Positions 3,397 through 62,885 of a stretch of 64,000 bases of DNA are shown here, one piece after another. The position numbers were made by a program, and so were the translations under genes. Position 1 is the first letter of the stretch, and every line of letters begins with the position of its first letter. Below the pieces are notes generated by a model. That model saw only the letters and a program-made list of their open reading frames with translations. It did not search any database and was not told where the DNA came from. Source of the stretch: an uncultured Acidobacteriota bacterium. GTDB lineage: Bacteria > Acidobacteriota > Vicinamibacteria > Vicinamibacterales > 2-12-FULL-66-21. The stretch is from the NCBI GenBank assembly GCA_963820645.1, contig CAWGAS010000031.1, forward strand, positions 156,984-220,983. Direction: 5' to 3'.

Positions 3397-3556
3397 CGGA
3401 GGGGACGGAGGTAGCGGAGATCACTTCAACACGGAGCAACGGAGGAACGGAGAAACGGAGGAAAATTGGTTTTTCAGAAACCAAATGCTCCGTTCCTCCG
3501 TTCCTCCGTGTTGAAGACCTTCGAATCGAAGGCCTCCGCTATCTCCGTCCCCTCCG
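3397..3556. repeat. Tandem-armed palindrome, class D (ACGGAG / CTCCGT)
   Basis: The left arm cggaggggacggaggtagcggag...caacacggagcaacggaggaacggagaaacggagg is mirrored by ctccgttcctccgttcctccgtgttg...ctccgctatctccgtcccctccg. The loop contains its own small hairpin ttggttt-ttcag-aaaccaa. It lies between convergent genes. Confidence 0.9.
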
Positions 3557-5413
3557 CTGACTCCGGCGCGCGCTTTCTTCCGCGCCGCGCGTTTGCCCAG
3601 CGCGCGCGCGAGCCGCGCCGCGAGGCGGCTCTTCTCCAGTGACTCGATCGGCTCCGGAAGCGCGATCGACCAGTTCGGCCACTCCGCGATCGTCGCCGGC
3701 ATGTTCGGCCGCTCGGTGACGAGCATCGCGTCGTCCAGCGTCGCGGTGAGGATGCGCGACGGGGCCGTGGCCATGCGCTTCGTGGACGCGGACGACCACG
3801 GTGGACAGGGGCGTGCGTGGGGTCGCGCCCGTGAGCCGCCTGACGCGCGTCAGGATCTCGCGCGTCCCCTGCTCGTTCGGCGACAGGCCGATGTCCTTCT
3901 GCGCCTGAAGATCGGATCCGGTCCACAGGCCGGCGATCGTCGGGAGGTCGTGCGTCGTGACCGCGGCGAGCGCCTGTTTCGGATACTTCGCCGGCGAGCG
4001 CTTCTCGAACCAGAGCAGCCGGTACGACAGCATGCGGCGCGCCAGCAGCTGCCCGCGCACGTCGTCTTCGACAGTGCCGAGATCCTCGCCGACGATGACC
4101 GCGCGGGCGCGGCGGCTCTCGAGCGCGACGATCGCCAGCAGATCCTGCGCCTCGCTGCGGACGTAGGCCCCCTGCCTGGCCTCCATGCCCGCGGGAATCC
4201 AGAACAGGCGGAACAATCCCATCACGTGATCGATCCGCAGCCCGCCGGAGTGCCGCACGCACGCGCGGATCGTCTCGATGAACGGCTGGTAGCCGGCCTG
4301 CCGGAGCCGGCGCGGCACGAACGGCGGCAGGCCCCAGTTCTGTCCTTTGGTGTTGAACTCGTCGGGAGGGGCGCCGACGCTGATGCCCTGCGCGAGCACG
4401 TCCTGGAACGCCCAGCCGTCCGCGCCGTCGGGGTCGAAGCCGATGGGCAGATCCTGCATGACCGGCATGGCGCGCGAGGCACGCGCCAGCTGCCGGTCTA
4501 TCTGGAGCTGCACCCACTGATGGAAACGGATGCGATCCGCCATCGGACGCTCGGTCGCGACGTCGCGCACCGCGGCCGACGACGGATGGCGGAACTCGTC
4601 CGGCCAGCCGTGCCAGCCGGACTGGAACCGCTCGGCGAGCGCGCAGAAGACCGCGAACTCGCTGGAGGCCGGGTCCCTGCTCCGCCGCGAACGTGTCGAG
4701 CTCCGGAAGATCGCGGCCGCGCACGCTCGCCCAGATCCGCTCGAGGACGCCCATCTTGAGCCGGTAGATCTCGTCGCGATCGATCCGTCGATCCGTGTTG
4801 AGCGCCCGCGCGCGTCACGGCGGTCGCCGACACGTCGCCCAGCGCCTGTGCCCCGTCCACCTCTTCGATTCGGAGATACAGCGGGTTGCGGAACCGGCGG
4901 CTCGACGGATAGTACGGGCTGGCTTGCTGCGGCACGACCGGCGTGGCGGCCGCCAGCGGGTTGATCAGCGCGATGCCGGCTCCGCTCCTGGCCGCCCATC
5001 GCCCCAGCCGCCGGAGATCCGCGAGGTCGCCGATGCCCCAGCTGCGCCGCGAGCGGGCGGCATACAACTGGATGGCCCATCCCCAGACGCGCAGCGACTC
5101 CGGAAGGAAACAGGTGGCCGGCGCGACGATGAGCCGCGCGGCGGTGCCGCCGGCCCGAGCGATCTCGTGATAGCCCACCGGCGTCCCGGCGGGCAGACGA
5201 TGGTCGATCGTGAGCGACGTGCCGTCTTCGAGGCGGATCTCCGCGGGGCCGAGCGCCGGGCGATCGCCTTCGGTCACGACGACGACCGGCGCGGGGCCGC
5301 CGGTCCGTTCGCCGATCGCGCGGCGGATGGCCGCGACCGCTTCCGGCGGCGACTCGCAGCGCCGGCCGAGGGCGTCGAGGTAGTGGGTCTGGACCTCGTC
5401 TGGCGGTGCTCAT
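3421..5413 (-). pseudogene. malQ: 4-alpha-glucanotransferase (amylomaltase), read in two frames
   Basis: N-terminal part RVWGWAIQLYAARSRRSWGIGDLADL, middle part FHQWVQLQIDRQL...PIGFDPDGADGW...FNTKGQNWGLPPF, C-terminal part ATLDDAMLVTERPNMPATIAEWPNWSIALP. Frame switches lie near 5395, 4750 and 3780. The ATG overlaps the glgX stop (ATGA at 5410-5413). The 3' end runs into the class D palindrome. Confidence 0.8.
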
Positions 5414-7536
5414 TTCGGCGCGATTCTTTTCAGGAGCACGAGGGACCACGCCTGGACGTGCGTGCGTCCGCCCGCCTCGATCTCCGGCCCGAGCTCTTCT
5501 TCGGACATGTAATCCATCTCGTCGGCCGTGTCGAGCACGACCGCCCAGCCGTCGCCCCACTTCGCTTCCGGGAGCGTGAATTCGACCGCATCATGATGCG
5601 CGTTGAACATCGTGTAGAAGCTGTCGTCGCGCAGGGGCTCGCCCCGTTCGTTCACCGTCGGGATCCCGCGGCCGTTGAGGAACACGCCGAGCGATTTCGC
5701 GAACCCGGCCCGCCAGTCCTCCTCGGACATCTCGGTGCCGGCGGGCGTGAACCAGCCGATGTCGCTGACCTGCGTCCCGTGAATCGGACGTCCCTGGAAC
5801 CAGCGGCGCCGGCAGAACACGGGATGGCGGTGACGGAGGCGAATCAGGCGGCTGATGAACTCCAGCAGGCTGCGGTCCACCGTCGCCCAGTCGTACCAGG
5901 ACATCTCGTTGTCCTGGCGGTACGCGTTGTTGTTCCCTCTCTGCGTGCGCCCGATCTCGTCGCCGCCGAGCAGCATCGGCACCCCCTGCGACAGGAACAG
6001 CGTCGCCAGGAAGTTCCGGGTCTGGCGCGCGCGCGCGGCGAGCACCTCCGGGTTCTCCGTCGGACCCTCCTCGCCGAGGTTCCACGATCGGTTGTGGCTT
6101 TCGCCGTCGCGGTTCTCTTCGCCGTTGGCCTCGTTGTGCTTGTCGTTGTACGACACGAGGTCGCGCAGTGAAAACCCGTCGTGCGCCGTGATGAAGTTGA
6201 TGCTCGCGTACGGCCGCCGCGCGGTGCCCTGATAGAGATCGGAACTGCCGGTGAAGCGGTACGCGAACTCGGCCAGCGTCTGATCGGTGCCGCGCCAGAA
6301 GTCGCGGACGCTGTCGCGGTACTTCCCGTTCCACTCCGACCAGAGCGGCGGGAAGTTGCCGACCTGGTACCCGCGCCCTCGCCGATGTCCCACGGCTCGG
6401 CGATGAGCTTGACCTGGCTGACCACGGGATCCTGCTGAATGAGATCGAAGAAGGACGACAGCCGGTCCACGTCGTGCAGCTCGCGCGCGAGCGTCGCGGC
6501 GAGATCGAAGCGGAAGCCGTCGACGTGCATGTCGTTGACCCAGTAGCGCAGGCTGTCCATGATGAGCTGCAGCACGTGCGGATGACGCATGTTCAGCGTG
6601 TTGCCCGTCCCCGTGTAGTCCATGTAGTAGCGCCGGTTGTCCGCCATGAGCCGGTAGTACGCCGCGTTGTCGATGCCCTTGAACGAGAGCATGGGCCCGA
6701 GGTGGTTCCCTTCGGCCGTGTGGTTGTACACCACGTCGAGGATCACTTCGATGCCCGCGGCGTGCAGCGTCTTGACGAGCTGCTTGAACTCCTGCACCTG
6801 CTCGCCGCGCTGGCCGGAGGCCGCGTACTCGTTGTGGGGGGCAAGATAGCCGATGGAGTTGTAGCCCCAGTAGTTGCGCAGGCCCCTCTGGGCGAGCGTC
6901 GAGTCCTGGACGAACTGGTGGACCGGCAGCAGCTCCACGGCGGTGACGCCAAGCTTCGTCAGGTACTCGACAGCCACCGGATGCGCCATGCCGGCGTAGG
7001 TGCCGCGCAGCGCCTCGGGTATGTCCGGATGCGTCTGGCTGAACCCTTTCACGTGCGTCTCGTAGACGACCGTGCGGTGCAACGGGGTGTTGGGCGGGCT
7101 GTCGTGGCCCCAGTCGAACGACGAGTTGATCACCACGCTCTTGGCGACGAACGGCATGCTGTCGAGAATCGTTGGTCGAGCTTTCCGGCTCATCGAAGCG
7201 ATACGGGAACATCGCCTCGTTCCAGTCCCACAAGCCGTCGACCGCCTTGGCGTACGGATCGAGCAGCAGCTTCGAGGGATTGCACCACTGCCCCTTCTCG
7301 GGCGCCCAGGGACCGTGCACCCGGAAACCGTAGCGCTGCCCCGGCCGGACGCCCGGCAAGTACCCGTGCCAGCACAAGGCCGTGCTTTCCGGCAGATCGA
7401 CGCGCGTCTGCTGCCCGTCCTCGTCGAACAGGCAGAGCTCGACGCGCTCAGCCGCTTCCGAGAACAGGGAGAAGTTCGTGCCCACGCCGTCGAAGAACGC
7501 ACCGAGGGGATACGGCTTGCCTGGCCAGATCTGCAT
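5410..7536 (-). pseudogene. glgX: Glycogen debranching enzyme, read in two frames
   Basis: [26 protein letters not shown]..., central GH13 part [13 protein letters not shown]...VDGFRFDLA...IAEPWD in the other frame, C-terminal [26 protein letters not shown]... back in the first. Frame switches lie near 7160 and 6375. Confidence 0.85.
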
Positions 7537-7545: not shown

Positions 7546-7686
7546 GTCTCAGGTCTCAGGTCTCTGGTCTCGGGTCTCAGGTCTCTGGTCGGTTCGGTCT
7601 TTTGGTCTTTTGGTCTTTGGTCTTTTGGTCTTTTAGTCTTTGGTCTTTGGTCCTACCTGAGACCTGAGACCCGAGACCCGAGACCC
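7546..7686. repeat. Tandem-armed palindrome, class B (GGTCTCR / YGAGACC) with a (GGTCTTT)n microsatellite in the loop
   Basis: Left arm gtctcaggtctcaggtctctggtctcgggtctcaggtctc, central 7-8 copies of GGTCTTT(T) at 7591-7653, right arm cctgagacctgagacccgagacccgagaccc. It lies between divergent glgX and the S9 peptidase gene. Confidence 0.9.
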
Positions 7687-9878: not shown

Positions 9879-11703
9879 ATGAAAAGAATCCTGGCGCTGA
9901 CGACGGCGGTTGCGCTGATCCTGACGCAACCGCTCTACACACAGCCCGACCTCGGCGTCCCCTCGCCTCAGGGGTCCGTCGTCTGCACCTCCGCGCCGGC
10001 CTGCGACGCTGGAGCCTCGGTGCTGGCGATCGGGGGGAACGCCGTCGACGCCGCGGTCGCCACGGCGTTCGCCCTGGCCGTGACGCACCCGAGCGCGGGC
10101 AACATCGGCGGCGGCGGGTTCATGATCGTCCGCACCCCGGGCGGCAGCGTGACGTCGTTCGACTACCGTGAGACGGCCCCGCTCAAGGCGACGCGGACGA
10201 TGTATCTCGGCGCGGACGGCAAGATCGACATCAGCCTGACGCGGGCGGGGTATCTCGCGCCGGGCGTGCCCGGTTCCGTCCGCGGGCTGGCGCGCGCGCA
10301 CGGGAAGTTCGGCAAGCTGCCGTGGAAGGACGTCGTGATGCCCGGCGTCCTGCTCGCCGAGCAGGGATTCCCGCTGTCGGCCGGTCTCGCGCGCAGCCTC
10401 AACCGCGAGCTCGCCGGCCGGATGGCCGACTTCCCTGTCTCGGTCGCCGCGTACGGGAAGCCGGGTGGCGGCGAGTGGCGCGAGGGAGACCGGATGGTGC
10501 TCGCCGATCTCGGCAAGACGCTCCGCGCGATCGCCACGGAGGGCCCCGACGTCTTCTACAAAGGCTGGATCGCGGACCGCATCGCCGACGACATGAAAGC
10601 GAACGGCGGCCTGATCACGCGACAGGATCTGGCGAAGTACCAGGCCAGGGAGCGCCCGCCGCTGCGCCGCCCCTATCGCGGCTACGAGATCGTCTCGATG
10701 CCGCCCGTCAGCTCCGGCGGCGTGGCGCTGATCGAGATGCTGAACATCCTCGAGCCGTACAGACCTCAAGTCGAAGGGGCTGCTGACCGCGCCGGCCCTG
10801 CACCTCCAGATCGAAGCGATGCGCCGCGCCTACCTCGACCGCGCGCGGTTTCTCGGCGATCCCGATTTCGTCAAGGTCCCGGTCGTGCGCCTGACGTCGA
10901 GGTCGCACGCCAGATCCGCCGCGTCCACGATCAATCCGGCGAGGGCGTCGAGCAGCGTCGATCTCGGCAAGGACATCGTCACCGCCGCGACCGCCCCGGA
11001 ACCGGACGAGACGACGCACTACTCGATCATGGACCGCGACGGCATGGCGGTCACGACGACGACGACGCTCGAGGGCGGCTTCGGCTCGCACGTCGTCGTG
11101 AAGGGCACGGGCTTTCTGTTGAACAACGAGATGGGGGACTTCAACCGGAAGCCGGGGGACACGAACCTGACCGGCGGCATCGGGACGCCGCCGAACCTGA
11201 TCGATCCCGGCAAGCGGATGCTCAGCTCGATGACGCCGACGATGGTGCTGAAGAACGGGAAGGTCGTGCTGCTGACCGGCTCGCCGGGCGGACGGACGAT
11301 CATCAACACCGTCCTGACCGTCGTGCTCGGCGTCACGGAGTACGGCCTCACCGGGCGCGAGGCGGTGGATCTGCCGCGGATGCACCACCAGTGGCTGCCC
11401 GATCGCGCGAGCCTGGAGCCGGCAGGCGTAGTGAGCAACGTCCCGAGAGGCGTCGTGAGCAACGTCCCGGCTGGCGTGACCAACGAGGTTCCGAAGGCCG
11501 TCGGCGACGACGTGCTGGACGCGCTCCGCGCGATGGGACACACCGTCGTGCGCGCCGCAGAACGACAGGGGGATGCGCATTCGATCTGGGTCGCTCCAGA
11601 CGGGACACCCTACGGGGTCAACGACCGCCGAACGGCGGATTCGAAGGCGGCAACCCCTGTCCCGAGCGCATTTGACAGTCCCGACCGGCGGGCGATAGGC
11701 TAA
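9879..11703 (+). pseudogene. ggt: Gamma-glutamyltransferase, read in two frames
   Basis: N-terminal half MKRILALTT...AVTHPSAGNIGGGGFMIV...MPPVSSGGVALIEMLNILE. C-terminal half from about 10800 in another frame (ETTHYSIMDRDGMAVTTTTTLEGGFGS...SSMTPTMV...GSPGGRTIINTV). It also contains a 3 x 24-nt in-frame tandem repeat at 11425-11496. Confidence 0.85.
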
Positions 11704-11880: not shown

Positions 11881-12201
11881 ATGGATTACTCGAAATTGAA
11901 CGGACTCATCCCGGCGGTCATCCAGGACAGCGCGACGCGCGAGGTCCTCATGGTCGGCTTCATGAACCAGGACGCGCTCGACCGGACGATCGAGACGGGC
12001 TTCGCGACCTTCTTCAGCCGGACGCGCGGGGCGTTGTGGATGAAGGGGGAGACGTCCGGCAACAAGCTGAAGGTCGAGCGGGTCCTCGTCGATTGCGACG
12101 ACGACACGCTGCTGGTGCTCGTGACGAGGCTCGGCGACGGCAACGTCTGCCACACCGGCGAGCGGACGTGCTTCTACCGGGAGCTGGAGCCTAAGATCTA
12201 A
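11881..12201 (+). CDS. hisI: Phosphoribosyl-AMP cyclohydrolase (monofunctional, no HisE domain)
   Basis: LIPAVIQDSATREVLMVGFMNQDAL...WMKGETSGN...VDCDDDTLLVLV...CHTGERTCFY. The listed ORF starts at a GTG at 11857; the ATG at 11881 is preferred. Confidence 0.9.
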   Translation: MDYSKLNGLIPAVIQDSATREVLMVGFMNQDALDRTIETGFATFFSRTRGALWMKGETSGNKLKVERVLVDCDDDTLLVLVTRLGDGNVCHTGERTCFYRELEPKI

Positions 12202-12273
12202 ACAGGAGATCAGGAGATCAGGAGTTTTTGTTTTGTTTGTTTGGTTTTTCTCCGGATCTTCTGACCTCCTGTT
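12201..12273. repeat. Tandem-armed palindrome, class E (CAGGAGAT / ATCTCCTG)
   Basis: aacaggagatcaggagatcaggag, then a T-rich loop, then ctccggatcttctgacctcctgtt. It lies inside the his operon between hisI and hisG. Confidence 0.9.
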
Positions 12274-18287: not shown

Positions 18288-18362
18288 AGGTCACGAGACC
18301 AGGAGATCAGGAGTTTTTTGGCTTCAAGAATGAATCTCCTGACCTCCTGATCTCCTGTTCAA
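18288..18362. repeat. Tandem-armed palindrome, class E
   Basis: gaccaggagatcaggag, then loop ttttttggcttcaagaatgaat, then ctcctgacctcctgatctcctgttc. It lies directly after hisA. Confidence 0.9.
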
Positions 18363-30313: not shown

Positions 30314-30343
30314 GGGCAGTCTCGAAGAAGAGTTACAGACGAG

Positions 30344-33232: not shown

Positions 33233-33261
33233 GGCGTTCCCGCTTTCTTGCTGCAGGCGCT

Positions 33262-36772: not shown

Positions 36773-36846
36773 ACACACTCTGACGATCTTCAACTCCGTT
36801 ACCTCCTGGCCGCGCCTCGGGGGCGCTCGTCCTGTGCGCCGCCGCG

Positions 36847-38535: not shown

Positions 38536-38540
38536 CGTGT

Positions 38541-38598
38541 CTAAAGTTCTAACGTTCTAACGTTCTAACGTTTCGAAACTTTAGAACTTTAGAACTTT
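38541..38598. repeat. Tandem-armed palindrome, class G (GTTCTAAC)
   Basis: agttctaacgttctaacgttctaacg-tttcg-aaactttagaactttagaactt. It lies between convergent genes. Confidence 0.8.
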
Positions 38599-40377: not shown

Positions 40378-40545
40378 GGGCGGGGCGGCCGCGGCGACTT
40401 CGCACCCGCGGTAAGGGCGCTCGCTTCGCTCGCGTAGGGCCGCGGCAGCCTTCGCACCGCGCGTAGGGGCGCGCACTCCCTTCGCACCGCGCGTAGGGGC
40501 CGCGCTCGCTTCGCTCGCGGTAGGGACGCGATCGGTTCGCAGATA
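40358..40545. repeat. REP-like array, family 2 (6-7 contiguous CTTCGCACCGCGCGTAGGGGC-type units)
   Basis: Units of 26-38 nt follow each other without unique spacers, for example cttcgcaccgcgcgtaggggcgcgcactcc / cttcgcaccgcgcgtaggggccgcgctcg. Confidence 0.75.
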
Positions 40546-41567: not shown

Positions 41568-41712
41568 ACTGCAGCTGATAAAAGACGCGCGGCGCTCGCG
41601 TCGTCTGTGACGCGGTTGCGACGGACGCGCCGATGTACGGGCAACGCCGGCACTGGCCGGCCGCGTCCCTCTGCCGCGAGGCGGGAAAACGGCCTCGGCT
41701 CGTACGCTCGCT

Positions 41713-42183
41713 TTGTCCGGTGGCCGATCCACCATCGTGTTCTTTTCTCCGCCACTTCGAGGTTCTCTCTCTGCCGCATGGTCCGAGTCAACATGGTCTG
41801 TCCTCAATGGATGCGCAGCTGAGATTCCCAACAGAGACGGGACACTGTCGCTACGGATCGATGAAGACGGCCGCGTCGAGGTGTTCAGGTGGGCGGCGAA
41901 AGCTGATTCGACAGGCGTTGCGATCGAACCTCCGCCATGGCGTCATGGTCTCCCAAGTCTGACGCTTTTTTTATCAACGACGGCAAGCAATTCCGGCCAG
42001 ACTAGCGTGTTTCGACTCTTTAGAATTGTCGATAACGGCATTATCGAAGACAAACGCATCCAGGAACTGGCGGTCAAGCGTTTTCGCGGCCTAAAGCGGT
42101 GCCGATCCGAGGCGTTTGATCCGAATGTGTGGGGCTTGGGTGGTGGCCGACGCAACGCGACTGTACCTGTTTGTTCAAGCTAA
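41713..42183 (+). CDS. Orphan ORF in the low-GC segment (no recognisable domain)
   Basis: Open frame only. The start is unclear and a T7 run at 41966-72 could hide a frame error. Confidence 0.2.
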   Translation: MSGGRSTIVFFSPPLRGSLSAAWSESTWSVLNGCAAEIPNRDGTLSLRIDEDGRVEVFRWAAKADSTGVAIEPPPWRHGLPSLTLFLSTTASNSGQTSVFRLFRIVDNGIIEDKRIQELAVKRFRGLKRCRSEAFDPNVWGLGGGRRNATVPVCSS

Positions 42184-42189
42184 TCACCA

Positions 42190-42417
42190 TCAACCGTGCG
42201 GCGCATTGACTTCATTCATCGGCATGGTCTGAAACTGACGACGACTCGATCGCCGAAACACTTTCCGAGGCGGCGCTAGACGACGATTTTGATCCTTGCT
42301 GTATCGAAGGAGCGTATCGGCAAGTAGCAAGCAAGACTGGTCAAGATGTACGAGGATGGCCTCAAACGTTCCGGAGTTGGAGGTTCTCACCTTGAGCAGG
42401 TCATCCACTTGATCCAA
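42190..42417 (-). CDS. Orphan ORF in the low-GC segment, convergent with the previous one
   Basis: 75-aa ORF (TTG start, frame open further upstream) with helical-looking sequence LDQVDDLLKVRTSNSGTFEAILVHLDQSCLLLADTLL. No family recognised. Confidence 0.2.
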   Translation of the reverse strand: MDQVDDLLKVRTSNSGTFEAILVHLDQSCLLLADTLLRYSKDQNRRLAPPRKVFRRSSRRQFQTMPMNEVNAPHG

Positions 42418-42928
42418 CTCGATGGGTTGATCTTTGCTCAGTGCTCGTCCCCTAGAGCGGCCTCGGGAGTGGCGTTACTTGGCCTGCGCAGTGCCGGCGC
42501 TGGGCGGCCGTGGTCCCTTCCACCCCAGCGCGCACAAAACGCGCGCCGGGGACCCCGGCTTGGAGCGAGGCGCCGCACCGCGAAGCCGGAAAACGGGTGA
42601 AGCGATTCCCCGCGGCGAGTTCGGTCAGTGTGATCCGCGTAGATCCCACGCGACCACCGGCGCATCAGTGCGCATCTGGCATCTGTCGCCCACCCGCATC
42701 CCTACTCGCCGCGCTATCGAGCGAAGCGAGCGAACGAGCTGAGACTTTTCCTGATGCTCGCGGGGCCCCACCCCCACTCGCTCGCGCTGCGGCGCGCGAA
42801 GACGCGCTATCCTCGCGCGGCCGCAGGCGCTTTTCCCGCCTCGCGGAAGAGGGACGCGGACGCCCAGTGCCGGCACTGCGCACCGCCGGCAATTGAGTAT
42901 CGGGGGCCCAGACCGTTCGTTTTATCGG

Positions 42929-43381: not shown

Positions 43382-43488
43382 GGGTTCCGCTGGGTTCCAC
43401 CGGGTTCCTCGGGGTTCCACGGGGTTCTGTTCCACGGGGTTCCACGAGGTTCTAGGTTCTAGGTTCTAGGTTCTTCCGGGTTCGGGAA
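43382..43488. repeat. Class F repeat unit (GGTTCC-N3-4 tandem), solitary arm
   Basis: gggttccgctgggttccaccgggttcctcggggttccacggggttctgttccacggggttccacgaggttctaggttctaggttctaggttc. About 85 % similar by eye to 48485-48575 and to the reverse complement of 49165-49262. Confidence 0.8.
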
Positions 43489-45390: not shown

Positions 45391-45773
45391 CTGTCACGCC
45401 CCGCTGCGCCTGACTCTCCAACACGGAGTTCACGGAGGCCACGGAGTCTCTAATTTCACCCTCCCGAACGCACTCGAGCCGCGCGGAGCGCGGGCATGTC
45501 AGGCGAGATCGAGGATGCAAACAGCCGGGAGAATCAGCGCTGCTTGCATGCCTCGATCTCACCTGACCTGCAACGCCGGCCGCTGCAACCTCCGGCCGGC
45601 GCTCGAGTGCGTTCCCGTCAGGGATATCGGCATCAGTGTTCTGATTTGTGCGCACGTGCTGCCAACTGAGCGATCGTGTCGAAATACGAGCTTCAACCCA
45701 ATCGCTTCGCTCCCGGAGACTCCGTGCACTCCGTGAACTCCGTGTTGGAAAAACAGCGAAGCCTGTTTGACAG
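45391..45773. mobile_element. MITE-like non-autonomous element, copy B (~383 bp), opposite orientation to copy A
   Basis: Same terminal inverted repeats as 22967-23362 (ctgtcacgcc...ccaacacggag / ctccgtgttgg...cctgtttgacag). The interior is inverted relative to copy A. Confidence 0.7.
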
Positions 45774-45880
45774 TGATGTCAGTTGAATAGATTGGAAGGC
45801 TGGACGAACGCGCCAGGAAGCGAAGACAACAAAACGGGCTTCTCCGCTATGTCCGTTAACTCTGTGGTGAGCACCCTGTG

Positions 45881-48004: not shown

Positions 48005-48505
48005 ATGCCACACGACACTGAAATCGATCGAATCCTGGACCAGCTCGCGCGGGAGCACGACGGCGATCCCTGGCACGGTTCGCCGTTGCGGGGCATCCTG
48101 AAGGGAGTGACTGCGGCGGCGGCCAGCGCGCGGCCCATCGCCGGCGGGCACTCGATCTGGGAGCTCGTGCTTCACATGACCGGCTGGAAAAATGAAGTAC
48201 GGCGGCGGCTCTCGGGAGCGCCGGCGAAGACGCCTGAAGGAGGAGACTGGCCGAAGGCCGGAGAGCCGACCGAGGCTCGATGGCAGGAGGCGCGCGAACG
48301 CCTGCAGCAAGCGCACGACGATCTCCTCAGCGCCATCCGTGCGCTTCCGGAAGAAAAGCTGTACACGCCCACGAACGATCCGCGCAGCAAACCGCTCGGC
48401 ACTGGAGTGTCGTACTACGTCCTGCTGCACGGCCTCGTCCAGCATGACGTTTATCACGCCGGGCAGATTGCGATTCTGAAGAAGGGTTCCGCTGGGTTCC
48501 GCTAG
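48005..48505 (+). CDS. DinB family protein
   Basis: Intact 166 aa. DPWHGSPLRGIL...HSIWELVLHMTGW...VQHDVYHAGQIAILKK. The last codons are supplied by the class F repeat. Confidence 0.8.
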   Translation: MPHDTEIDRILDQLAREHDGDPWHGSPLRGILKGVTAAAASARPIAGGHSIWELVLHMTGWKNEVRRRLSGAPAKTPEGGDWPKAGEPTEARWQEARERLQQAHDDLLSAIRALPEEKLYTPTNDPRSKPLGTGVSYYVLLHGLVQHDVYHAGQIAILKKGSAGFR

Positions 48506-48575
48506 GTTCCACGGGTTCCGCAGGGTTCTGTTCCACAGGGTTCGACTGGGTTCTAGGTTCAGGGTTCAGGTTCAG
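48485..48575. repeat. Class F repeat, left inverted repeat of the four-helix-bundle cassette
   Basis: ggttccgctgggttccgctaggttccacgggttccgcagggttctgttccacagggttcgactgggttctaggttc, followed by ggttcagg tandem copies up to about 48610. Confidence 0.8.
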
Positions 48576-49024
48576 GGTTCAGGTTCAGGGTTCTCGGTTC
48601 CGGGTTCCTGAGGTTCGGGCTTCGGCTTGGCTCGCGGCGGTGTGAACGGTTTCTTGCGGCCGCAGCGGCGCAAGTACTTGTGGAGCCGATTGCTCGCGCG
48701 AAGCGCGCGACAGGCAAGTCGCCAGGCATCGGTGAAGTCTTCCTCCGTGAAATACTTCTTGTCGCGGCCGTGGATCAAGTGGTCCTGCGTCTCCGATAGC
48801 GAGCTGCGGGCGATGTTCAGGAAGTGCGCGAACTCGGGCGGATCGAAGCGGGCGAAGCCTTCCGCCATGTTCCGCGGAGCGGAGCAGGCGGAGTCGCGGA
48901 TTTGATCCCGGAATCTGAAGTCCTTCAGTACCGGTCCCTGCTCGATCATCCGACAGACGAGATCGCGCAGCTTCACGGCGACCTGCCAGCAAATCAAATC
49001 CTCGAATCGCTTCGCTACGGCCAT
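48572..49024 (-). CDS. Four-helix-bundle protein (TIGR02436 / 23S rRNA IVS protein / Avd-like family)
   Basis: Intact 150 aa. FEDLICWQVAVKL...IRDSACSAPRNMAEGFARF...FLNIARSSLSETQDHL. The C-terminal tail PKPEPQEPGTENPEPEP is encoded by the repeat. Confidence 0.8.
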   Translation of the reverse strand: MAVAKRFEDLICWQVAVKLRDLVCRMIEQGPVLKDFRFRDQIRDSACSAPRNMAEGFARFDPPEFAHFLNIARSSLSETQDHLIHGRDKKYFTEEDFTDAWRLACRALRASNRLHKYLRRCGRKKPFTPPRAKPKPEPQEPGTENPEPEP

Positions 49025-49164: not shown

Positions 49165-49262
49165 GAACCAGAGGAACCGAACCTAGAACCTAGAACCCAG
49201 CGGAACCTCGTGGAACAGAACCCTGCGGAACCCCGTGGAACCCTGTGGAACCTTGCGGAACC
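49165..49262. repeat. Class F repeat, right inverted repeat of the four-helix-bundle cassette
   Basis: Its reverse complement, ggttccgcaaggttccacagggttccacggggttccgcagggttctgttccacgaggttccgctgggttctaggttctaggttc, aligns along its whole length with 48485-48575. Confidence 0.8.
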
Positions 49263-49263: not shown

Positions 49264-50673
49264 TTAGTCGAGCAACATCGCAGACGGATCTTCTACGAGC
49301 TGCTTGATCCGAACCAGGAACTGAACCGCCTCAGCCCCGTCGACGATCCGGTGATCGTAGGTCAGCGCGACGTACATCATCGGCTTGATGACGACCTGGC
49401 CGTTCGCCGCAACGGGACGCTGCTGGATGGTGTGCAGGCCGAGGATGCCGACCTGCGGCGGGTTGAGAATCGGCGTGCTGAGCAGCGAGCCGAACACGCC
49501 GCCGTTGGTGATGGTGAACGTCCCGCCCTTGAGATCGGCGAGCGACAGCGACCCGTCTTCCGCGCGCTTCGCGAAGTCGCGGATCTGCCGCTCGATCTGC
49601 GCGAACGACATCCGGTCCGCGTCGCGCAGCACCGGCACGACGAGCCCTTCGCTCGCGCCGACGGCGACGCCGATGTCGTAGTAGTGCTTGAGCACCATCT
49701 CGTCCCCCTGGATCTCGGCGTTGATCCGGGGAAACGCGCGCAGCGCGCCGATGGAGGCCTTGACGAAGAACGACGCGATGCCCAGTCCGACGCCGTGGCG
49801 CTCCTTGAACGCCTGCTTGTGGCGCTCGCGCATCGCCATCACGGCCGACATGTCGACTTCGTTGAAGGTCGTGAGCATCGCGGCGGTGCTCTGCGCCTCG
49901 AGAAGCCGCTTGGCGATGGTCGCGCGCCGCTTCGACATGCGGATGCGCTCTTCGGTGCGATCGCCGGGCACGGCGCGCGGCTCCGCGATGGGCGCGGCAG
50001 GTCTCGCCTTCGCTGGCTCGGGCGTCGAAGGCCCCGCCTTCGCCTGGGGATCTCCGGCAGGCTTCGGCGCGGCAGGTTCCGCTTTCGCCTGGGCGGCAGC
50101 CGGCTCCGGCGGCGCACCGGCCTGGTCCGCCGATGCGGCGCTCTGACCGTTTCCACCGCCGGCAGCCGCCTGCTCGACGTCCCGCCGCATGACCCGCCCC
50201 GCGTCGCCGCTGCCGCGCACGCGGCTGAGATCGACGTCGCGATCTTCGGCCGCCTTCCGCGCGGCCGGCGTCGAGCGCGTCCGTTCGGTCGCCGGCTTCT
50301 GATCCGATTCCGCGTGCTTCGCTTCCGGCTGAGGCTCTGCCGGCTGCGGCGCGGCATTTTCCAATGCTCGCGGGGCCCCACGCCCACTCGCTCGCGCCTC
50401 ACGGCTCGAAGACTCGCCGTCGGCGCGGGCCGCAGGCGCTGCGTCCTCGACCACTCCCAGCACATCGCCGACCTTCACGTCGTCGCCATCCTTGCGGCCA
50501 ATCTTGAGGACGCCTCCCTGCGGGGCCGCGACCTCGAGGTCAACTTTGTCCGTCTCGAGCTCGACGAGCGGATCGCCGACCGACACGGCGTCCCCTTCCT
50601 TGCGGAGCCACTTCGCCACGCGCGCGTCCACGATGGACTCGCCGACTTCCGGGACGACTATGTTCGACGGCAT
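49264..50673 (-). CDS. sucB: Dihydrolipoyllysine-residue succinyltransferase (2-oxoglutarate dehydrogenase E2)
   Basis: Intact 469 aa. Lipoyl domain ([13 protein letters not shown]), Ala/Pro-rich linkers, PSBD ([22 protein letters not shown]), catalytic domain ([15 protein letters not shown]). Confidence 0.9.
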
Positions 50674-50685: not shown

Positions 50686-50776
50686 GTCTCGGGTCGGTCT
50701 CGGGTCTCGGGGTCTCAGGTCTTTGGTCTTCGTCTTGGGTTTCGGATCCCGAGTCCCGAGTCTCGAGTCCCGAGAC
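50686..50776. repeat. Tandem-armed palindrome, class B
   Basis: agtctcgggtcggtctcgggtctcggggtctcaggtc...atcccgagtcccgagtctcgagtcccgagac. It lies between sucA and sucB. Confidence 0.85.
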
Positions 50777-50783: not shown

Positions 50784-53606
<2,823 letters not shown>

Positions 53607-56183: not shown

Positions 56184-56358
56184 CGTTCTTGGTTCTTGGT
56201 TCTTGGTTCTTGGTTCTTCTCGTTTTTTCGTTTTCGTTCTGCCGTTCGTTCGTGACCAAGAGGTGGACGAAAACGGGGCCAACGACAACAGCAGCCTTCG
56301 AACGACGACGGACGAACGGCGAACGAAGAACAAAGAACAAAGAACCAAGACCGACGGT
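56184..56358. repeat. Tandem-armed palindrome, class C
   Basis: ccgttcttggttcttggttcttggttcttggttcttctcg...cgaacgaagaacaaagaacaaagaaccaagaccgacgg. Confidence 0.9.
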
Positions 56359-57774
56359 TCAGTTCTTCATCCCGAAGCAGTACAAAGAATTCAGCGTCCG
56401 CACGTAGATCCGCCCGTCCACCAGAGCCGGCGTCGCGTAGATGTTGTCCTGCAAATCGTTGATCGCGATCGCCTCGAGGCCGCCGCCGGGAGGCAGGACG
56501 ATGACCTTGCCGTTCTCGCTGGCGATGTAAATCTTCCCGTCCCCCGCGACCGGCGACGCGTAGAACGTGTCGCTCGGCACCTTCAGCCGGCCCTGCTGAA
56601 TCAGCTCTCCCGTCTCCGGCTTCAGCGTCGTCACGATGCCGCCGGCGTCGTTGACCATGTAGAGCGCACCCTTGTACAGGAGCGGCGATGGGAGCTGTGG
56701 AATGCCCCGCTGATACTTCCAGCGGACGGCCGTCGCCGTCATGTCGCCCTTGCCACCCAGCTTGATGGCGAGCATGCCGTTTTCGGAGTCCGCCGCCGCC
56801 TTGTAGTAGTCCCACTCGTCGCGACTGAGGTGCTTGTCGCCGTCGAGATCCGTGTACGCCATCGATCGGCGCGCGTGCGTCGTCGGCATCTCGTCGGGCG
56901 ACAGCTTCCCGTCCTGGTTCGCGTCGCTCGCCGGGAACACGTCCACGGTCGGCGCCACCGTCACCTTGGCGCCGGGCTGGTTCTGTGACGACCCGAACCC
57001 GTTGATGTAGAGGGTGTCGCCGGAGATCACCGGGGTCGACTTCATCTCGAACGACAGTCCGCCGACCCACCAGAGCCGCGTCCCGTCGCGCGGATCGTAC
57101 GCCGACAGCAGGAACGAGCCGGGCACGAGAATCTGCGCGCGGCCCCCCGGCGGCGTGTAGACGATGGGGGTCGAATGGCCGCTCCTGGCTTCGACACGCG
57201 GCGTGCGCCACCGCTCACGGCCGGTCGTCTTCTCGAAGGCCGCGATGAACGAGCCGGTGCTCTGATCGCACGTGAGCACGACGAGGTCGTCGACGACAAT
57301 CGGGGAGGCCCCCATCCCGTAGATGTTGTTGAAGGGACCCAGAGGCTTGCGCCACAGCTCGCGGCCGTTCACGTCGTAGGCCAGCAGCCCGTAGTCGGCG
57401 AAGAAGAAATAGACGCGCTGGCCGTCCGTGGCAGCCGAGGCCGCGGCCGGATGATTGCGCTTGTCGAGCTTTTCCTTCCTGACGCGCGGCGCCTCGCGCT
57501 CCCACAGCACTTTCCCCGTCCGCCGATCCACCGCGAAGCTCACGAGCGTGTCCGCCCGGAACCCGGTCAGGAAGATCCGATTGCCGTGCACGATCGGCGA
57601 GGAGTATCCCTGCGGCAGGTCGGTCTTCCAGATCACGTTCCGGTCCGGCCCGAACTCCGTCGGCAACGCGGTGCCCTCCGACAGCCCGGAGCCGTTCGGC
57701 CCGCGGAAGCGGGACCAGTCCCCGGCCGACTGGGCAGACAGGAAGGCCAGGGCGACGATGAAAATTGCACTCAT
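56359..57774 (-). CDS. PQQ-like (BamB-type) beta-propeller protein with an inserted EF-hand-like segment
   Basis: Signal peptide MSAIFIVALAFLSAQSA, then WSRFRGPNGSG..., DANQDGKLSPDEM and DLDGDKHLSRDEW (two EF-hand-like Ca-binding loops) between propeller blades. Confidence 0.7.
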   Translation of the reverse strand: MSAIFIVALAFLSAQSAGDWSRFRGPNGSGLSEGTALPTEFGPDRNVIWKTDLPQGYSSPIVHGNRIFLTGFRADTLVSFAVDRRTGKVLWEREAPRVRKEKLDKRNHPAAASAATDGQRVYFFFADYGLLAYDVNGRELWRKPLGPFNNIYGMGASPIVVDDLVVLTCDQSTGSFIAAFEKTTGRERWRTPRVEARSGHSTPIVYTPPGGRAQILVPGSFLLSAYDPRDGTRLWWVGGLSFEMKSTPVISGDTLYINGFGSSQNQPGAKVTVAPTVDVFPASDANQDGKLSPDEMPTTHARRSMAYTDLDGDKHLSRDEWDYYKAAADSENGMLAIKLGGKGDMTATAVRWKYQRGIPQLPSPLLYKGALYMVNDAGGIVTTLKPETGELIQQGRLKVPSDTFYASPVAGDGKIYIASENGKVIVLPPGGGLEAIAINDLQDNIYATPALVDGRIYVRTLNSLYCFGMKN

Positions 57775-57939
57775 TGTGGATGCTGTCCTTGCTCCTGCGA
57801 TTGGGCCTGCACACACGCCGGGCGGCCGTCGCCGAACGACAGCCACATACCGGAGACGACTGCTGCCAGGACGCGAGGTCGGTTGTTCATGTTAGCTCTC
57901 TTCGATCGGCCCCACATGGTTCGGTTGTAGGCCCGATCG

Positions 57940-59199
57940 TCATCGACGCCGCGTGGGATTCTCGTACCAGACGACGCCAAGCCCCGGGTTGCCGGCCCTC
58001 GCGTTGTCGTTTTCCTCGCTGTTGATGATGTCGAGATCGTCATCGCCGTCCACGTCGAGCAACAGACTGAGATCGAATTTGACACCCTCGGGTCCGCTCA
58101 CATCGAAGACATCCCAGGCGGACTCGAGTGGAGACTTCCGGAATCGGAGCCAGACGATGCCCCGCTTACCGCTGCGCGCCTCTTCGCAGGCAAGGACGAT
58201 GTCCGGCCTGCCATCCAGATCGATGTCTCCAACCGCGACCGATTTCGGCCGCCCGGCAATCTCCGGGTAACGAACCGAGTATCCACGCCAGTCCCGGCCG
58301 CTTGCCGAGCTCGACTTGAAAACACTCATTCGCCAGTCGTTACCGAGGTAGTGAGGGACGACGATCTCTTTCACGCCGTCGCCGTCGAGATCGGCGGCTT
58401 CGATGAACATCGCTTCGCGTCCGGCGGCACCGACCGCATGGCTCGTCCAGGGTTTGCGCAGGCCGGTGGATCCGGCCCCTGGGTTCTCCAACCAGCGGAC
58501 GCCGGCCATCGGGCCACGCCGGTCGCTCAGCAGAATGTCGGGATGCCCGTCGTGGTTCATGTCCTCGCGGATGAGCGACATGATCCAGCCGGCGTCGCTG
58601 AGACGGTGAAGCGTCCAATCCTGAACCCGCCGCGGATTGGCTGGCGCCTCGAGCCACGCCACGCTCGCTCCCTCGTCTTTTCCCCCGATCACGAGGTCGC
58701 GGCCGCGCCGCTGGTCGATGTCCATGGGCATCGCGAACATCCACCGGCTGCCATTCGAGACGAGCGGCTCGGACGTCCATGCCTCTTCGGCAGCGTAGCG
58801 ATCGACGCTCCGGGGCGCCCAAAGCACCAGCACCCGCCGGGTTTCACCCTCGGTCGAGCTGATGACGTCGAGGACGCCGTCTCCGTCCGCGTCAAAGAAC
58901 ACCCCGTCCTCGACGTCCGGCGTCTTGCCGGCCGTGACGGCGCGCCACGCGGGACGCGTCTGGCCGGCGCGGGAGCTGAGGTAGATGCGCGTGATGCCGC
59001 CCTGTTCCCAGCCGACGACGAGGTCGGGAAGGCCGTCGCCGTTGACGTCGGCTGCACGCACGCCGTCGGCGCCTCTGGAAGAACTATCGATCAGGTGCCG
59101 GATCCAGGGGTCTGCGCTGCGAGGTTGCGCGGCCGGCCCGGCAAGCAGGTTCGCGGCGGCCAGGAGCCCGACACCGGTCATCGCCCGTGATCGCATCAT
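57940..59199 (-). CDS. FG-GAP/VCBS repeat protein (secreted)
   Basis: Intact 419 aa. Repeated D(V/L)(N/D)GDG(L/V/H)PD(L/I) motifs (DVNGDGLPDLVV, DADGDGVLDVIS, DMNHDGHPDILL, DLDGDGVKEIVV, DIDLDGRPDIVL, DVDGDDDLDIIN). Confidence 0.8.
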   Translation of the reverse strand: MMRSRAMTGVGLLAAANLLAGPAAQPRSADPWIRHLIDSSSRGADGVRAADVNGDGLPDLVVGWEQGGITRIYLSSRAGQTRPAWRAVTAGKTPDVEDGVFFDADGDGVLDVISSTEGETRRVLVLWAPRSVDRYAAEEAWTSEPLVSNGSRWMFAMPMDIDQRRGRDLVIGGKDEGASVAWLEAPANPRRVQDWTLHRLSDAGWIMSLIREDMNHDGHPDILLSDRRGPMAGVRWLENPGAGSTGLRKPWTSHAVGAAGREAMFIEAADLDGDGVKEIVVPHYLGNDWRMSVFKSSSASGRDWRGYSVRYPEIAGRPKSVAVGDIDLDGRPDIVLACEEARSGKRGIVWLRFRKSPLESAWDVFDVSGPEGVKFDLSLLLDVDGDDDLDIINSEENDNARAGNPGLGVVWYENPTRRR

Positions 59200-59230
59200 C
59201 CCGCCTCCGCCTCTGAGGGGCGTCAGAACA

Positions 59231-59253
59231 GCAGGCCGGAAGGCCTGCGCTAC
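59231..59253. repeat. REP hairpin (GTAG family, reverse orientation)
   Basis: gcaggcc-ggaa-ggcctgc-gctac. Confidence 0.6.
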
Positions 59254-59259
59254 GACTGG

Positions 59260-61770
<2,511 letters not shown>

Positions 61771-61777: not shown

Positions 61778-61880
61778 CGTGGCGTCCGGCTTTAGCCGGA
61801 CCAAGCGGGTTTGAAAGACTCAGGTCGTCGCTGGACAACCGTTTCGCGCCACCATGGTCCGGCTGAAGCCGGACGCCACG
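61778..61880. repeat. REPIN-like doublet of GTAG-family REP hairpins
   Basis: cgtggcgtccggc-ttta-gccggacc and ggtccggc-tgaa-gccggacgccacg are inverted, with a ~54-nt spacer. Confidence 0.7.
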
Positions 61881-61884
61881 AGCA

Positions 61885-62796
61885 TTGACAATGCGCTACC
61901 TCCACCTCGATGTCTTCACCGATCGTCCCTTCGAAGGGAACCAGCTGGCAGTGTTCCCCGAGCCGCGCGGCCTGACGCCGGCGCAGATGCAGAGCATCGC
62001 GCGCGAGATGAACTTCTCGGAGTCCACGTTCATCTTCCCGCCCGAGGCGGGCGGCGACTTCCGGATGCGGATCTTCACGCCCAACGAGGAGCTGCCGATG
62101 GCCGGCCACCCCACGATCGGCAGCACGTTCGCGCTGGCGGCTGAAGGCGCGATCACGCGGGGCCGGCCCGAGTTCGTCTTCGAGCTCGGCGTCGGGCCGA
62201 CCCCCGTCTCGCTCGAATGGGGTGATGCCGGGCTGTCGTTCGCGTGGATGACGCAGCCGCCGCCGGCGTTCGGCGCGATCGTCGCGGACCGTGCGAGGTT
62301 TGCGGCTGCCGTCGGGCTCGACGAATCGGATCTTGCGGCAGGACTCCCGGTCCAGTCCGTCTCGTGCGGCGTGCCGTTTCTCTTCGCACCGATGGCGTCG
62401 CGCCGTGCGGTGGACAGCGTCGCGATCGATCGGCGAGGGCTGGCGAAGAGCTGTGGATCAGCGGGGCTCGGCGAGCTGCCCGTCTTCTTTTTCACCACGG
62501 AGCCCGGACAGCCGCCACAAGCCGGCGAGACCGTCTACAGCCGGATGCTGGCGCCTGCCTACGGCATTGCCGAAGATCCGGCGACCGGCGGCGCGAGCGG
62601 GCCGCTCGGCTGCTACCTGGTCCAGCACCTCGTGGTCAGCCCCGAGGCCGCGCGATCGATGCTCAGCCTGCAAGGCGTGGCGATGGGACGCCCGAGCCGG
62701 ATTTACATTTCGATCGAGGGACGGCCGGGCGCTATCACGCGTGTTCGGGTCGGAGGACGCTCGGTGCTGGTGGGGCGCGGGGAGCTGCAGATCTGA
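61885..62796 (+). CDS. PhzF family isomerase
   Basis: Intact 303 aa. LHLDVFTDRPFEGNQLAVF...EMNFSESTF...RIFTPNEELPMAGHPTIGS...EDPATGGASGPLGCYL. Confidence 0.85.
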   Translation: MTMRYLHLDVFTDRPFEGNQLAVFPEPRGLTPAQMQSIAREMNFSESTFIFPPEAGGDFRMRIFTPNEELPMAGHPTIGSTFALAAEGAITRGRPEFVFELGVGPTPVSLEWGDAGLSFAWMTQPPPAFGAIVADRARFAAAVGLDESDLAAGLPVQSVSCGVPFLFAPMASRRAVDSVAIDRRGLAKSCGSAGLGELPVFFFTTEPGQPPQAGETVYSRMLAPAYGIAEDPATGGASGPLGCYLVQHLVVSPEAARSMLSLQGVAMGRPSRIYISIEGRPGAITRVRVGGRSVLVGRGELQI

Positions 62797-62885
62797 ATCA
62801 CTAATCACTAATCAAAGAATCCTTGAATCCGGATGAGATCGCGACATCTGATTCAGGGATTCGAGACAGGATTAGTGATTATGGA
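62797..62885. repeat. Tandem-armed palindrome, class H (AATCACT)
   Basis: aatcactaatcactaatc...aatccttgaatc...gattcagggatt...gattagtgatt. It lies between convergent genes and overlaps the last codons of the methyltransferase. Confidence 0.75.

Follow-up and report, generated by a model that had tools for sequence, protein, structure and literature searches.

Intergenic arrays of short tandem units that face a complementary array on the opposite strand have been recorded in Geobacter and in Xanthomonas. Here we compare them with the tandem-unit elements (classes A to H) that are scattered over a 64,000-nucleotide (nt) stretch of an uncultured Acidobacteriota bacterium (assembly GCA_963820645.1, contig CAWGAS010000031.1, positions 156,984 to 220,983; the window hereafter means this whole stretch), and with the arrays that flank genes of the protein family PF05635. 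In G. metallireducens, Aklujkar et al. (2009) described three classes of paired sites on opposite strands, with the units GTTGCTYN x4 (24 pairs), TCTCCGTS[Y] x3 (21 pairs) and MTYCTGA x5 (8 pairs) (PMC2700814). The pairs lie in operon spacers (nifD/K, proB/A, moaA/mosC), ISGme8, an insertion sequence (IS) of the IS110 family, is repeatedly found between the sites, and the sites were proposed, without experiment, to be those of an IHF/HU-type regulator (PMC2700814). The window resembles this system in its several classes per genome, in its 3 to 5 tandem units of 7 to 9 nt, in the opposite-strand partner at variable distance, in the location within operon spacers and in an IS110 insertion. Furthermore, TCTCCGTS corresponds to the class D unit of the window in reverse complement, and MTYCTGA matches the unit of L033 (L-numbers label sequence loci from other assemblies that were compared with the window) and resembles class E. 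However, Geobacter belongs to another phylum and no link to PF05635 was made there; the window differs further in its longer arms (up to seven units), in its nested arms, in loops that are themselves tandem repeats, in its solo arrays and in a member that carries a gene.

In Xanthomonas, Rehm et al. (2015) counted about 186 sites of the heptamer GGGAATC and 70 convergent inverted pairs in X. campestris, and 183 sites and 75 pairs in X. citri (PMC4692102). Array length varies between species and the type is kept; the repeat was studied as a G-quadruplex former, and the authors report no association with mobile elements and do not mention PF05635 (PMC4692102). The papers checked on this repeat and on the TAACTGA repeat of Beggiatoa mention neither PF05635 nor intervening sequences (IVSs). 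As in the window, the heptamers form intergenic arrays in inverted pairs, and the same heptamer forms the arms around the gene for XCC0516, the PF05635 protein of X. campestris, and around its orthologues, but there is a single sequence class per genome. Heptanucleotide long simple sequence repeats (SSRs) and cyanobacterial short tandemly repeated repetitive sequences (STRRs) (Mrazek et al. 2007; Mazel et al. 1990) are described, as cited in PMC4679880 and PMC4692102, as over-represented, lineage-specific 7-nt units with several families per genome, and PMC4679880 summarizes the idea of polymerase slippage that Mrazek et al. put forward for the SSRs. These repeats are defined as direct arrays, without inverted pairing or gene association; the PF05635 genes sampled from Nostocales plasmids are flanked by short tandem arrays, which are heptamers in three of four cases.

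A PF05635 gene inside a stem is known from the IVSs of 23S rRNA. The Coxiella IVS carries an S23p open reading frame (ORF), a 28-bp terminal stem and, immediately internal to the end that forms the stem, a strain-variable GACAGAT x2-3 array. RNase III excises the element, its cut falling where the first repeat begins; the IVS is regarded as selfish, its mobility being unknown (PMC4990558). IVSs with an S23p/PF05635 ORF (Coxiella, Leptospira) share with the window the ORF in the loop of a long inverted-end stem and the tandem heptamers in the 5' region. However, the window elements lie in mRNA spacers and intergenic DNA and are mostly devoid of an ORF, and the RNase III cut is known for the IVS alone. 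Repetitive extragenic palindromes (REPs), with their bacterial interspersed mosaic elements (BIMEs), REPINs and REP-associated tyrosine transposases (RAYTs), are likewise short, intergenic and multi-copy, with several families per genome, and they are targets of IS110-family ISs (IS621, ISPpu-type), but a REP is a single imperfect palindrome of 20 to 40 nt, headed by GTAG and lacking any tandem periodicity inside. MITEs (miniature inverted-repeat transposable elements) are also comparable, in that they have terminal inverted repeats, no coding capacity, a length of 70 to 390 bp, dispersed copies and both filled and empty sites; unlike them, the window elements have no cognate transposase that we could find, their target duplications are inconsistent and their ends are tandem arrays of variable length.

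Given the Geobacter, Xanthomonas and SSR/STRR precedents, the architecture is already recorded, though unexplained, and the window elements are new members of a recorded kind that extend it to another phylum, with an unusually large number of classes. Tandem arms, a complementary partner, intergenic multi-copy occurrence and use as an IS110 target (one case) are all found in the window, and an ORF between the arms is found at one array pair alone. A first reading of the window, made from its letters only (the sequence-only reading), had taken the architecture for an undescribed one. This was only partly right in view of Geobacter, Xanthomonas and the Coxiella IVS; the recorded design has never been explained. 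Our literature search returned no paper stating a general association between PF05635 and tandem arrays, and two papers that report PF05635 genes within cas loci are silent on flanking repeats.

Results

Inverted tandem arrays bracket PF05635 genes

The window elements are best read as one kind of dispersed stem-loop module, made of inverted arrays whose unit combines a 5- to 6-nt core with a variable 2- to 5-nt spacer, for a period of 7 to 10 nt. The same construction, with the same G-first polarity, brackets PF05635 genes in at least five phyla. The sole gene within an array pair in the window belongs to this family:

48484-48607, + strand: F2 array, GGTTC-type, one arm around the PF05635 gene
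48572-49024, - strand: PF05635/TIGR02436 gene in the F2-F3 loop, the tail of its ORF entering F2 (Pfam 2.7e-23, TIGR02436 1.5e-20)
49165-49262, - strand: F3 array, GGAACC-type, inverted partner of F2

The product of such a gene is a four-helix bundle annotated as "23S rRNA intervening-sequence protein" (IVP). PF05635 proteins are standalone relatives of Avd, the accessory protein of diversity-generating retroelements; the family is large and widespread, and Avd is, to our knowledge, the only member of it that is understood. Class F had been listed among the self-palindromes, which proved incorrect: the arrays give fold z-scores of about 0, F2 and F3 being inverted copies 611 nt apart around the gene and F1 a solo array. 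Orthologues of the gene occupy the same sucB-dinB site in L164 and L165.

A profile search over about 1.7 Mb of acidobacterial loci gave five PF05635 genes, and all five lie between inverted tandem arrays. Their arms consist of mutually unrelated units (GGTTC-type, GGTGCTA, GGCTTTG). Bracketed PF05635 loci are located at L043 14609-15052, L015 17159-17693, L166 2930-3372 and L176-L181, and bracketed genes are found within operons (accB/accC, sucB/dinB, hisH/hisA, cas6/cas4). In a metagenomic set of 80 PF05635 loci, 73 had enough flank for an arm test. Significant inverted arms were present at 52 of these 73, and 49 of the 52 were periodic; among random 360-nt pseudo-genes placed in acidobacterial loci as a control, 1 of 308 had such arms. 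Around other gene families in the 1.7 Mb, long-range inverted arrays amounted only to palindromes with a larger loop and GC-rich chance matches.

Similarly, all six plasmid-borne PF05635 genes sampled from cultured bacteria are bracketed, with z-scores of 7.6 to 19.3 and the following arms:

Nostoc sp. ATCC 53789 plasmid: GGGAAAA-type units
N. punctiforme plasmid: TCAGGAG (E-like)
Anabaena sp. 90 plasmid: GGTGACA, the gene lying between cas6 and cas4
Calothrix NIES-22 plasmid: GGGTGTA
Riemerella plasmid: GGTTCAA
Azospirillum plasmid: GACGGAG/GACAGAG (D-like)

The order accB-[GGGAATN x4]-IVP-[NATTCCC x4]-accC is found in Xanthomonas campestris, in the X. citri group, in X. sacchari and in Dyella, one arm mirroring the other unit by unit. 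The crystal structure of XCC0516 is available (PDB 2GSC).

Concerning the classes of the window, the class C and G units form the arms of PF05635 genes in L098, L099, L112 and L126, the G unit being that of L098 and L126. The class A, E and H units are absent beside all 80 metagenomic PF05635 genes, and the class D unit occurs beside one of them (L146), 200 nt off, at a locus not scored as a pair. A six-frame profile search of the window revealed no second PF05635 copy or remnant, and nothing significant inside the 390-bp elements with class D ends, the match within copy 1 of these (22979-23331) having an E-value of 2.6.

Within the subfamily related to the window protein, GGTTC cores follow one another at spacings of 7, 8, 9 and 10 nt (68, 54, 117 and 71 counts, respectively), with variable bases in the spacers. 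The GGTTC core is kept at the orthologous sucB-dinB site despite divergence of the protein to 65% identity, and arm length there ranges from about 100 to more than 300 nt. GTTC cores prevail among homologues with about 45% or more identity to the window protein, and GTGCT, GTCCA, GTTTC or GTGCC cores are found in more distant ones.

Polarity was scored in 34 palindromes consisting of an array plus its partner, from the window, L001-L083 and L164/L165. The 5' arm was G-rich in 30 of 33 (p = 1.4e-6, some orthologous duplicates being included); within the window, A1 and H depart from this, as does G by a narrow margin, with more C than G in the 5' arm. All PF05635-flanking pairs are G-first. Since a palindrome reads alike on both strands, arm order is an intrinsic property of the element. 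An ORF in the loop would need a purine-rich ribosome-binding region upstream, and only a G-first palindrome would supply one in either orientation. We thus propose that gene-less copies are G-first because they descend from gene-carrying cassettes. For the GGAG classes, CsrA-like GGA motifs and Shine-Dalgarno sequences were also considered, and the G-first polarity would fit the need for a ribosome-binding site.

The window harbors many gene-less elements in several classes

The palindromes that the sequence-only reading had placed in the window were read directly, and each has arms of tandem units as described. Fold z-scores were obtained by comparing the ViennaRNA minimum free energy (MFE) with that of 100 shuffles per element. 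Together with the F2-F3 cassette, the elements with class units are the following:

655-738: A1 palindrome, arms CAACTCC x2 and GGGAGTT x3, with further degenerate GGGNGTT units on the 3' side, z -8.9
3387-3566: D1 nested palindrome, outer arms CGGAG-type, inner arms ACGGAGNA x4 / CTCCGTTC x3, two mini-hairpins, z -16.7
7546-7686: B1 palindrome, arms GGTCTCN x6 / GAGACCN x4, the loop being a GGTCTTT x8 array, z -7.7
12201-12273: E1 palindrome, arms CAGGAGAT x3 and complement, T-rich loop, hisI-hisG spacer, z -7.1
18288-18362: E2 palindrome, 3' of hisF, z -4.4
21538-21708: C1 palindrome, arms GGTTCTT x4-6 / AAGAACC x6.6 (right array perfect), z -10.5
22979-23331, - strand: MITE-like copy 1, about 350-390 bp, terminal inverted repeats CACGGAGNN x3 (class D unit), no ORF
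25385-25420, + strand: A2 solo array, GGGAGTT-type, 4.4 units, no self-folding
28631-28670, - strand: A3 degenerate solo array of class A units (CAACTCCC)
28676-28703: E4 left arm, interrupted within its third unit by an IS
28704-30336, + strand: IS110-family IS of 1633 bp in the E4 left arm, transposase ORF 28943-30313
30337-30395: E4 remainder (end of left arm, loop and right arm), 78% identical to E2, loop included
36684-36781: D2 palindrome, ACGGAGNA units plus a non-repetitive CACCACAGAG outer stem, z -8.1
38535-38599: G palindrome, arms GTTCTAAC x4 / TTAGAACT x3, between convergent genes, z -6.3
43382-43488, + strand: F1 solo direct array, GGGTTCCNNN 10-mers followed by GGTTCTA 7-mers, z -0.3
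45410-45762, + strand: MITE-like copy 2, 3' of gyrB
45838-45880: D3, half an element, matching the right half of D2 at 88% identity
47881-47950: E3 palindrome, gyrB-dinB divergent region, z -5.4
50686-50776: B2 palindrome, sucA-sucB spacer, z -5.4
56184-56353: C2 palindrome, arms GGTTCTT x4.9 / degenerate AAGAACN, 104-nt structured loop, z -6.2
62796-62885: H palindrome, arms AATCACT x2.7 / AGTGATT, between convergent genes, C-rich arm first, z -7.7

The twelve self-folding elements (A1, B1, B2, C1, C2, D1, D2, E1, E2, E3, G and H) thus range from z -4.4 (E2) to z -16.7 (D1), and the design of inverted short tandem arrays around an A/T-rich or structured loop, in several classes, is borne out. 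In A1, the C-rich arm leads, as in few other elements. Pairing with a complementary array is lacking in the solo arrays F1, A2, A3 and D3; F1 is 88% identical to the reverse complement of F3. Units measure 7 nt (A, B, C, H), 8 nt (D, E, G), 9 nt (MITE-like ends) or 7 to 10 nt (F), with at least three tandem copies per arm, as determined with Tandem Repeats Finder (TRF) and by direct reading. The classes had been called unrelated in sequence. Several classes do stand, but B, C, F and G have a common GGTYC/GTTC core, and A, D and E a common GGAG core.

To compare with a background of dinucleotide shuffles, arrays of period 7 or 8 were called with TRF (at least 3 copies, at least 85% matches, non-overlapping). 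Eleven were observed in the window versus 0.32 per shuffle, an approximately 34-fold excess. Period 7 is dominant, accounting for 8 of the 16 arrays of the window and for 52 of the 99 that 83 related loci contain. Tandem-unit elements are present in 20 of the 34 gaps of at least 60 nt and in 17 of the 25 gaps of at least 100 nt, on a gene map that is approximate (a manual merge of Pfam hits and of gene calls of neighbours), and other repeats occupy four more large gaps. The map confirmed the reported sites, namely, 3' ends, spaces between convergent genes, operons (hisI/hisG, sucA/sucB) and divergent regions. D1 lies between the convergent TOBE/HTH and GH77 genes and B1 in the divergent region of the isoamylase and peptidase S9 genes. 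Several elements are only 6 to 25 nt from the adjacent stop or start codon; the 3' end of C1 is 6 nt ahead of the ATPase_2 start codon. The G+C content of the window is 64-73%, and its housekeeping genes include the his operon, sucAB and gyrA/gyrB. Searches centered on HisG put it close to metagenome-assembled genomes of Vicinamibacterales, within Acidobacteriota.

At the gathering score, Rfam 15 gave no matches in the 64 kb. The form of an intrinsic terminator was not encountered either: on direct reading, sequences such as GTTCAAG, TTAAAG and ATCGTTC come after the 3' arms, and T-runs sit in the loops.

When the IS (28704-30336) is removed from E4, the hairpin refolds, with -41.8 kcal/mol. 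The IS matches Pfam DEDD_Tnp_IS110 (7.7e-23) and Transposase_20 (2.7e-12). Since this insertion parallels that of ISGme8 in Geobacter class 1 pairs, the palindromes seem to be IS110 targets, with one case here. A separation from the GTAG-headed REPs had also been stated, and indeed no tandem-arm element begins with GTAG. A Pfam scan of about 46 ORFs, restricted to the 64-kb window, gave the domain assignments and no match to Y1_Tnp (RAYT); the RAYT-like mobilizing enzyme that had been suggested was not found there, and the sole gene that we found tied to the arrays is PF05635.

Other dispersed repeats are present in the window. GTAG...CTAC-headed REP doublets at 61778-61880 and 63497-63601 form a separate repeat family (z -9.2 and -6.0). 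Further GC-rich repeats (motif ...CGCGGGGCCCCACCCCCAC...GCGAGCG...) occur at 27567-27621, 40398-40530, 42747-42817 and 50357-50427, and the CGCGGGGCCCCACCCCCAC family is also found at L004 18400-18590 and L165 7230-7300, in both orientations and partly as 29- to 30-nt tandem copies; one copy is apparently inside the sucB coding region.

Elements are resized and replaced at orthologous sites

The window was compared with relatives of different nucleotide identity (L001, about 96%; L164, about 95-97%; L002, about 86%; L003, about 75-80%; L165, about 70-87%), L001, L002 and L164 being separate European Nucleotide Archive (ENA) samples. At orthologous sites of L001, L002 and L164, further copies of D1, C1, E2, C2, B2, E3 and the F arms are present, with differing unit counts. 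Recurrence in independent assemblies with different unit numbers shows that they are not artefacts. Both the presence of elements and the length of their arms vary among relatives, as follows.

Arms gain and lose units independently between genomes that are about 96% identical. The right arm of C1 has 6.6 perfect units in the window and 3 in L001, and the site is empty in L002. The inner arms of D1 have 4/3 units in the window, 4/4 in L001 and 3/4 in L002, and D1 is absent from L003. These exact counts are to be taken with caution, since the window probably contains indel errors: sucA (50784-53606), the GH77/isoamylase pair (3539-7536) and the DUF1800 gene (31731-33925) are split or overlap across frames, which suggests residual indels of long-read assembly.

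Furthermore, whole elements are replaced or lost at orthologous sites. At the B1 site, L001 has a different array (GGTTCTT) between flanks of 96% identity. In place of E1, L001 has a GTAG REP doublet (9965-10066) and L002 a 35-nt spacer, and the hisI-hisG spacer of many other Acidobacteriota holds unrelated arrays or palindromes. E2 is common to the window and L001, and the same site in L002 is occupied by an unrelated GTGAATT-armed palindrome. E3, B2 and C2 are also present in L164. In L165, the sucA-sucB spacer, which is the B2 site, contains a 150-nt direct array of GAACC-core 10-mers (CAGAACCCTG x15.9), and there are solo GAACC-core arrays at three other intergenic sites, this spacer included.

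The copies within a class share non-repeat parts, such as the loops of E, 42 nt of D2 and D3 at 88% identity, and the ends of C1 and C2 (35 nt, 100% complementary). This indicates that the classes are families by descent and not independent local inventions. Under one filter, array density per 10 kb is about 4 in the window, L001, L002 and L003, 8.6 in L049, and 0 in L004 and L005, the nearest GTDB relatives. The tandem-arm design also occurs in distant Acidobacteriota, namely, L049 (Terriglobia), L033 and L024; the contigs of L049 (k141) and L024 (NODE) are from short-read assembly, to judge from their names.

At C1, the comparison with the empty L002 site gives a possible 7-bp duplication, ATCGTCC/ATCGTTC (21531-21537, 21709-21715), a single weak case; no consistent target duplication was detected at the other elements. 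Just 5' of C1 and ATPase_2, a pair of TTACGT-N-ACGTAA palindromes (21496-21535), which looks like an operator site, is kept in L001-L004, including those without C1.

Two further differences from L164 were noted. An FG-GAP repeat protein gene (57940-59199, - strand) lies beside gyrA within about 1.4 kb that are extra in the window (57721-59278, versus L164 1157-1331), a strain-level insertion or deletion. Inverted repeats of 55 nt (41641-41695 / 42825-42879, 87% complementary) lie on either side of about 1.1 kb in which no ORF matches Pfam, and the syntenic region of L164 encodes a 319-amino-acid protein with a weak TsiV match; this region (41641-42879) may be an insertion or a disrupted gene.

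Discussion

On balance, though by no means firmly, we favor the view that the window elements are fast-evolving, gene-less relatives of PF05635 stem-loop cassettes, which are tolerated in spacers, whose arms slip and whose core is recognized by a cognate protein. The gene-less palindromes would be miniature relatives of the cassettes, as MITEs are of IS elements. Classes B, C, F and G would go with the GGTTC-armed PF05635 subfamily resident in this genome, and the D-like and E-like cores would have their PF05635 counterparts in Azospirillum and Nostoc. The insert may be tolerated in transcribed spacers, near start and stop codons, because the arms could pair and loop it out. As RNA, the element could form a duplex of 20 to 70 bp, which RNase III might cleave as it does in 23S rRNA IVSs. 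Array length would change by slipped-strand mispairing, and a cognate PF05635 pentamer probably recognizes the core of the repeat.

Several observations weigh against this view. Of the roughly 13 palindromes in the window, a single one contains a PF05635 gene, and 21 of the 73 testable metagenomic genes have no significant arms. Arms of class A or H were not found around any PF05635 gene, and those resembling D and E were found in other phyla only; the link of A, D, E and H to PF05635 therefore stems from architecture and core similarity. We know of no catalytic activity in PF05635, and hence the family offers no mechanism of transposition. Orthologous cassettes are vertically stable, both at sucB-dinB here and at accB-accC across Xanthomonadales, and this stability resembles that of a conserved host module and not of an active mobile element. 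Cleavage of these stems by RNase III is suggested by analogy with the IVSs. A comparison of MFE and G.U counts on both strands with the direction of transcription gave no consistent bias that would point to selection on the sense-strand RNA, and B2, C1 and E2 fold better as antisense RNA. Finally, the 390-bp D-type elements look like ordinary MITEs.

Three alternatives, namely, transposase-driven MITEs, slippage with template switching, and host regulator sites, each explain part of the data. Under the first, the elements would be classical non-autonomous transposons, MITE- or REP-like, whose ends are arrays of transposase-binding units mobilized in trans. This appears unlikely, because the gene inside such arms is PF05635 and not a transposase. 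Neither the window nor any of the fetched loci contains a transposase with matching ends, and the one transposase of the window is that of the IS110-family IS that cuts E4. The inverted ends, the dispersal in many copies and the filled versus empty orthologous sites (C1 in the window and L001 versus L002) are as expected of transposons, and so is the D-type element of 350 to 390 bp, which is present in two copies and has repeat-built terminal inverted repeats of 35 nt and no ORF. The possible duplication at C1 and the REP-like use as an IS110 target would also fit. However, the elements have neither a GTAG head nor a RAYT that we could find, target duplications are inconsistent, and typical terminal inverted repeats vary far less in arm length and unit number.

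A second alternative is that the elements are mutational by-products, hairpins grown by slippage that favors 7-nt units and kept complementary by intra-strand template switching, with no mobility, protein or function. Slippage, an idea of Mrazek et al. that is summarized in PMC4679880, is in line with the dominance of period 7 whatever the sequence, with the unrelated arrays in the hisI-hisG spacer of many Acidobacteriota, and with arms that vary independently in near-identical genomes, one perfect and the other degenerate as in C1. It does not explain why the same unit comes with the same loop or flank at two to four unlinked sites within 64 kb, nor why the core is conserved while the spacers vary. 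Moreover, cores recur across phyla (D in Geobacter class 2, Azospirillum and Coxiella; E in N. punctiforme and Geobacter class 3), and neither the G-first polarity nor the association with one gene family (71% versus 0.3%) would be expected from slippage alone. We therefore regard this alternative as quite unlikely.

Third, the arrays could be binding sites for a global regulator or nucleoid protein of the IHF/HU type that controls the adjacent operons, as the equivalent Geobacter elements were interpreted (Aklujkar et al. 2009, PMC2700814). At the same junction, however, the presence and the class of the element differ between genomes that are 86-96% identical, a turnover that one would hardly expect if the regulation of those operons were conserved. 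The position in operon spacers and promoter regions, the core-plus-spacer organization, which is typical of binding-site arrays, and the conservation of the accB-IVP-accC module from Xanthomonas to Dyella speak for such sites; yet the 7-nt period does not match the helical repeat, and eight or more classes would require as many regulators. Regulation of this kind is, in our opinion, decidedly improbable, and should the regulator be the PF05635 protein itself, it merges with the explanation that we favor.

Artefacts of long-read metagenome assembly or consensus, to which the apparent frameshifts in sucA, GH77/isoamylase and the DUF1800 gene, the Flye-style contigs of the relatives and the fragmented gene calls of L002 might point, are effectively refuted by homologous elements at orthologous sites in four independent assemblies, by the same design in contigs with short-read-assembler names, in finished genomes and on plasmids of cultured bacteria, and by published precedent (PMC4692102, PMC4990558, PMC2700814).

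Beyond the gene-less relatives of PF05635 cassettes in this window, PF05635 proteins and short-period tandem arrays could constitute one pan-bacterial system, in which each subfamily has a cognate core of 5 to 6 nt that is arranged G-first around its own gene and scattered elsewhere as palindromes without a gene and as solo arrays. This wider proposal is tentative, although plausible. If true, it would account for the excess of heptanucleotides seen as cyanobacterial STRRs, as GGGAATC in Xanthomonas, as Geobacter classes 1 to 3 and as the eight classes here. PF05635 would gain a nucleic-acid target, the repeats being bound by the pentamer as DNA or RNA, and the arrays would be either a PF05635 regulon or the footprints of cassette spread.

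[quoted passage not shown] Heptanucleotide repeats have been recorded since 1990, as STRRs, and were the most over-represented class of long SSRs according to the 2007 study, with no source or function found. The window and the analysis that followed it tie them to PF05635 statistically and across phyla. Owing to this association, the origin of heptanucleotide repeats and the role of PF05635 become directly testable. X. campestris is a tractable organism, since the structure of XCC0516 is solved, its gene lies within accBC and about 180 arrays across the genome have the same heptamer as its flanks; other candidates are Nostoc punctiforme and Geobacter metallireducens.

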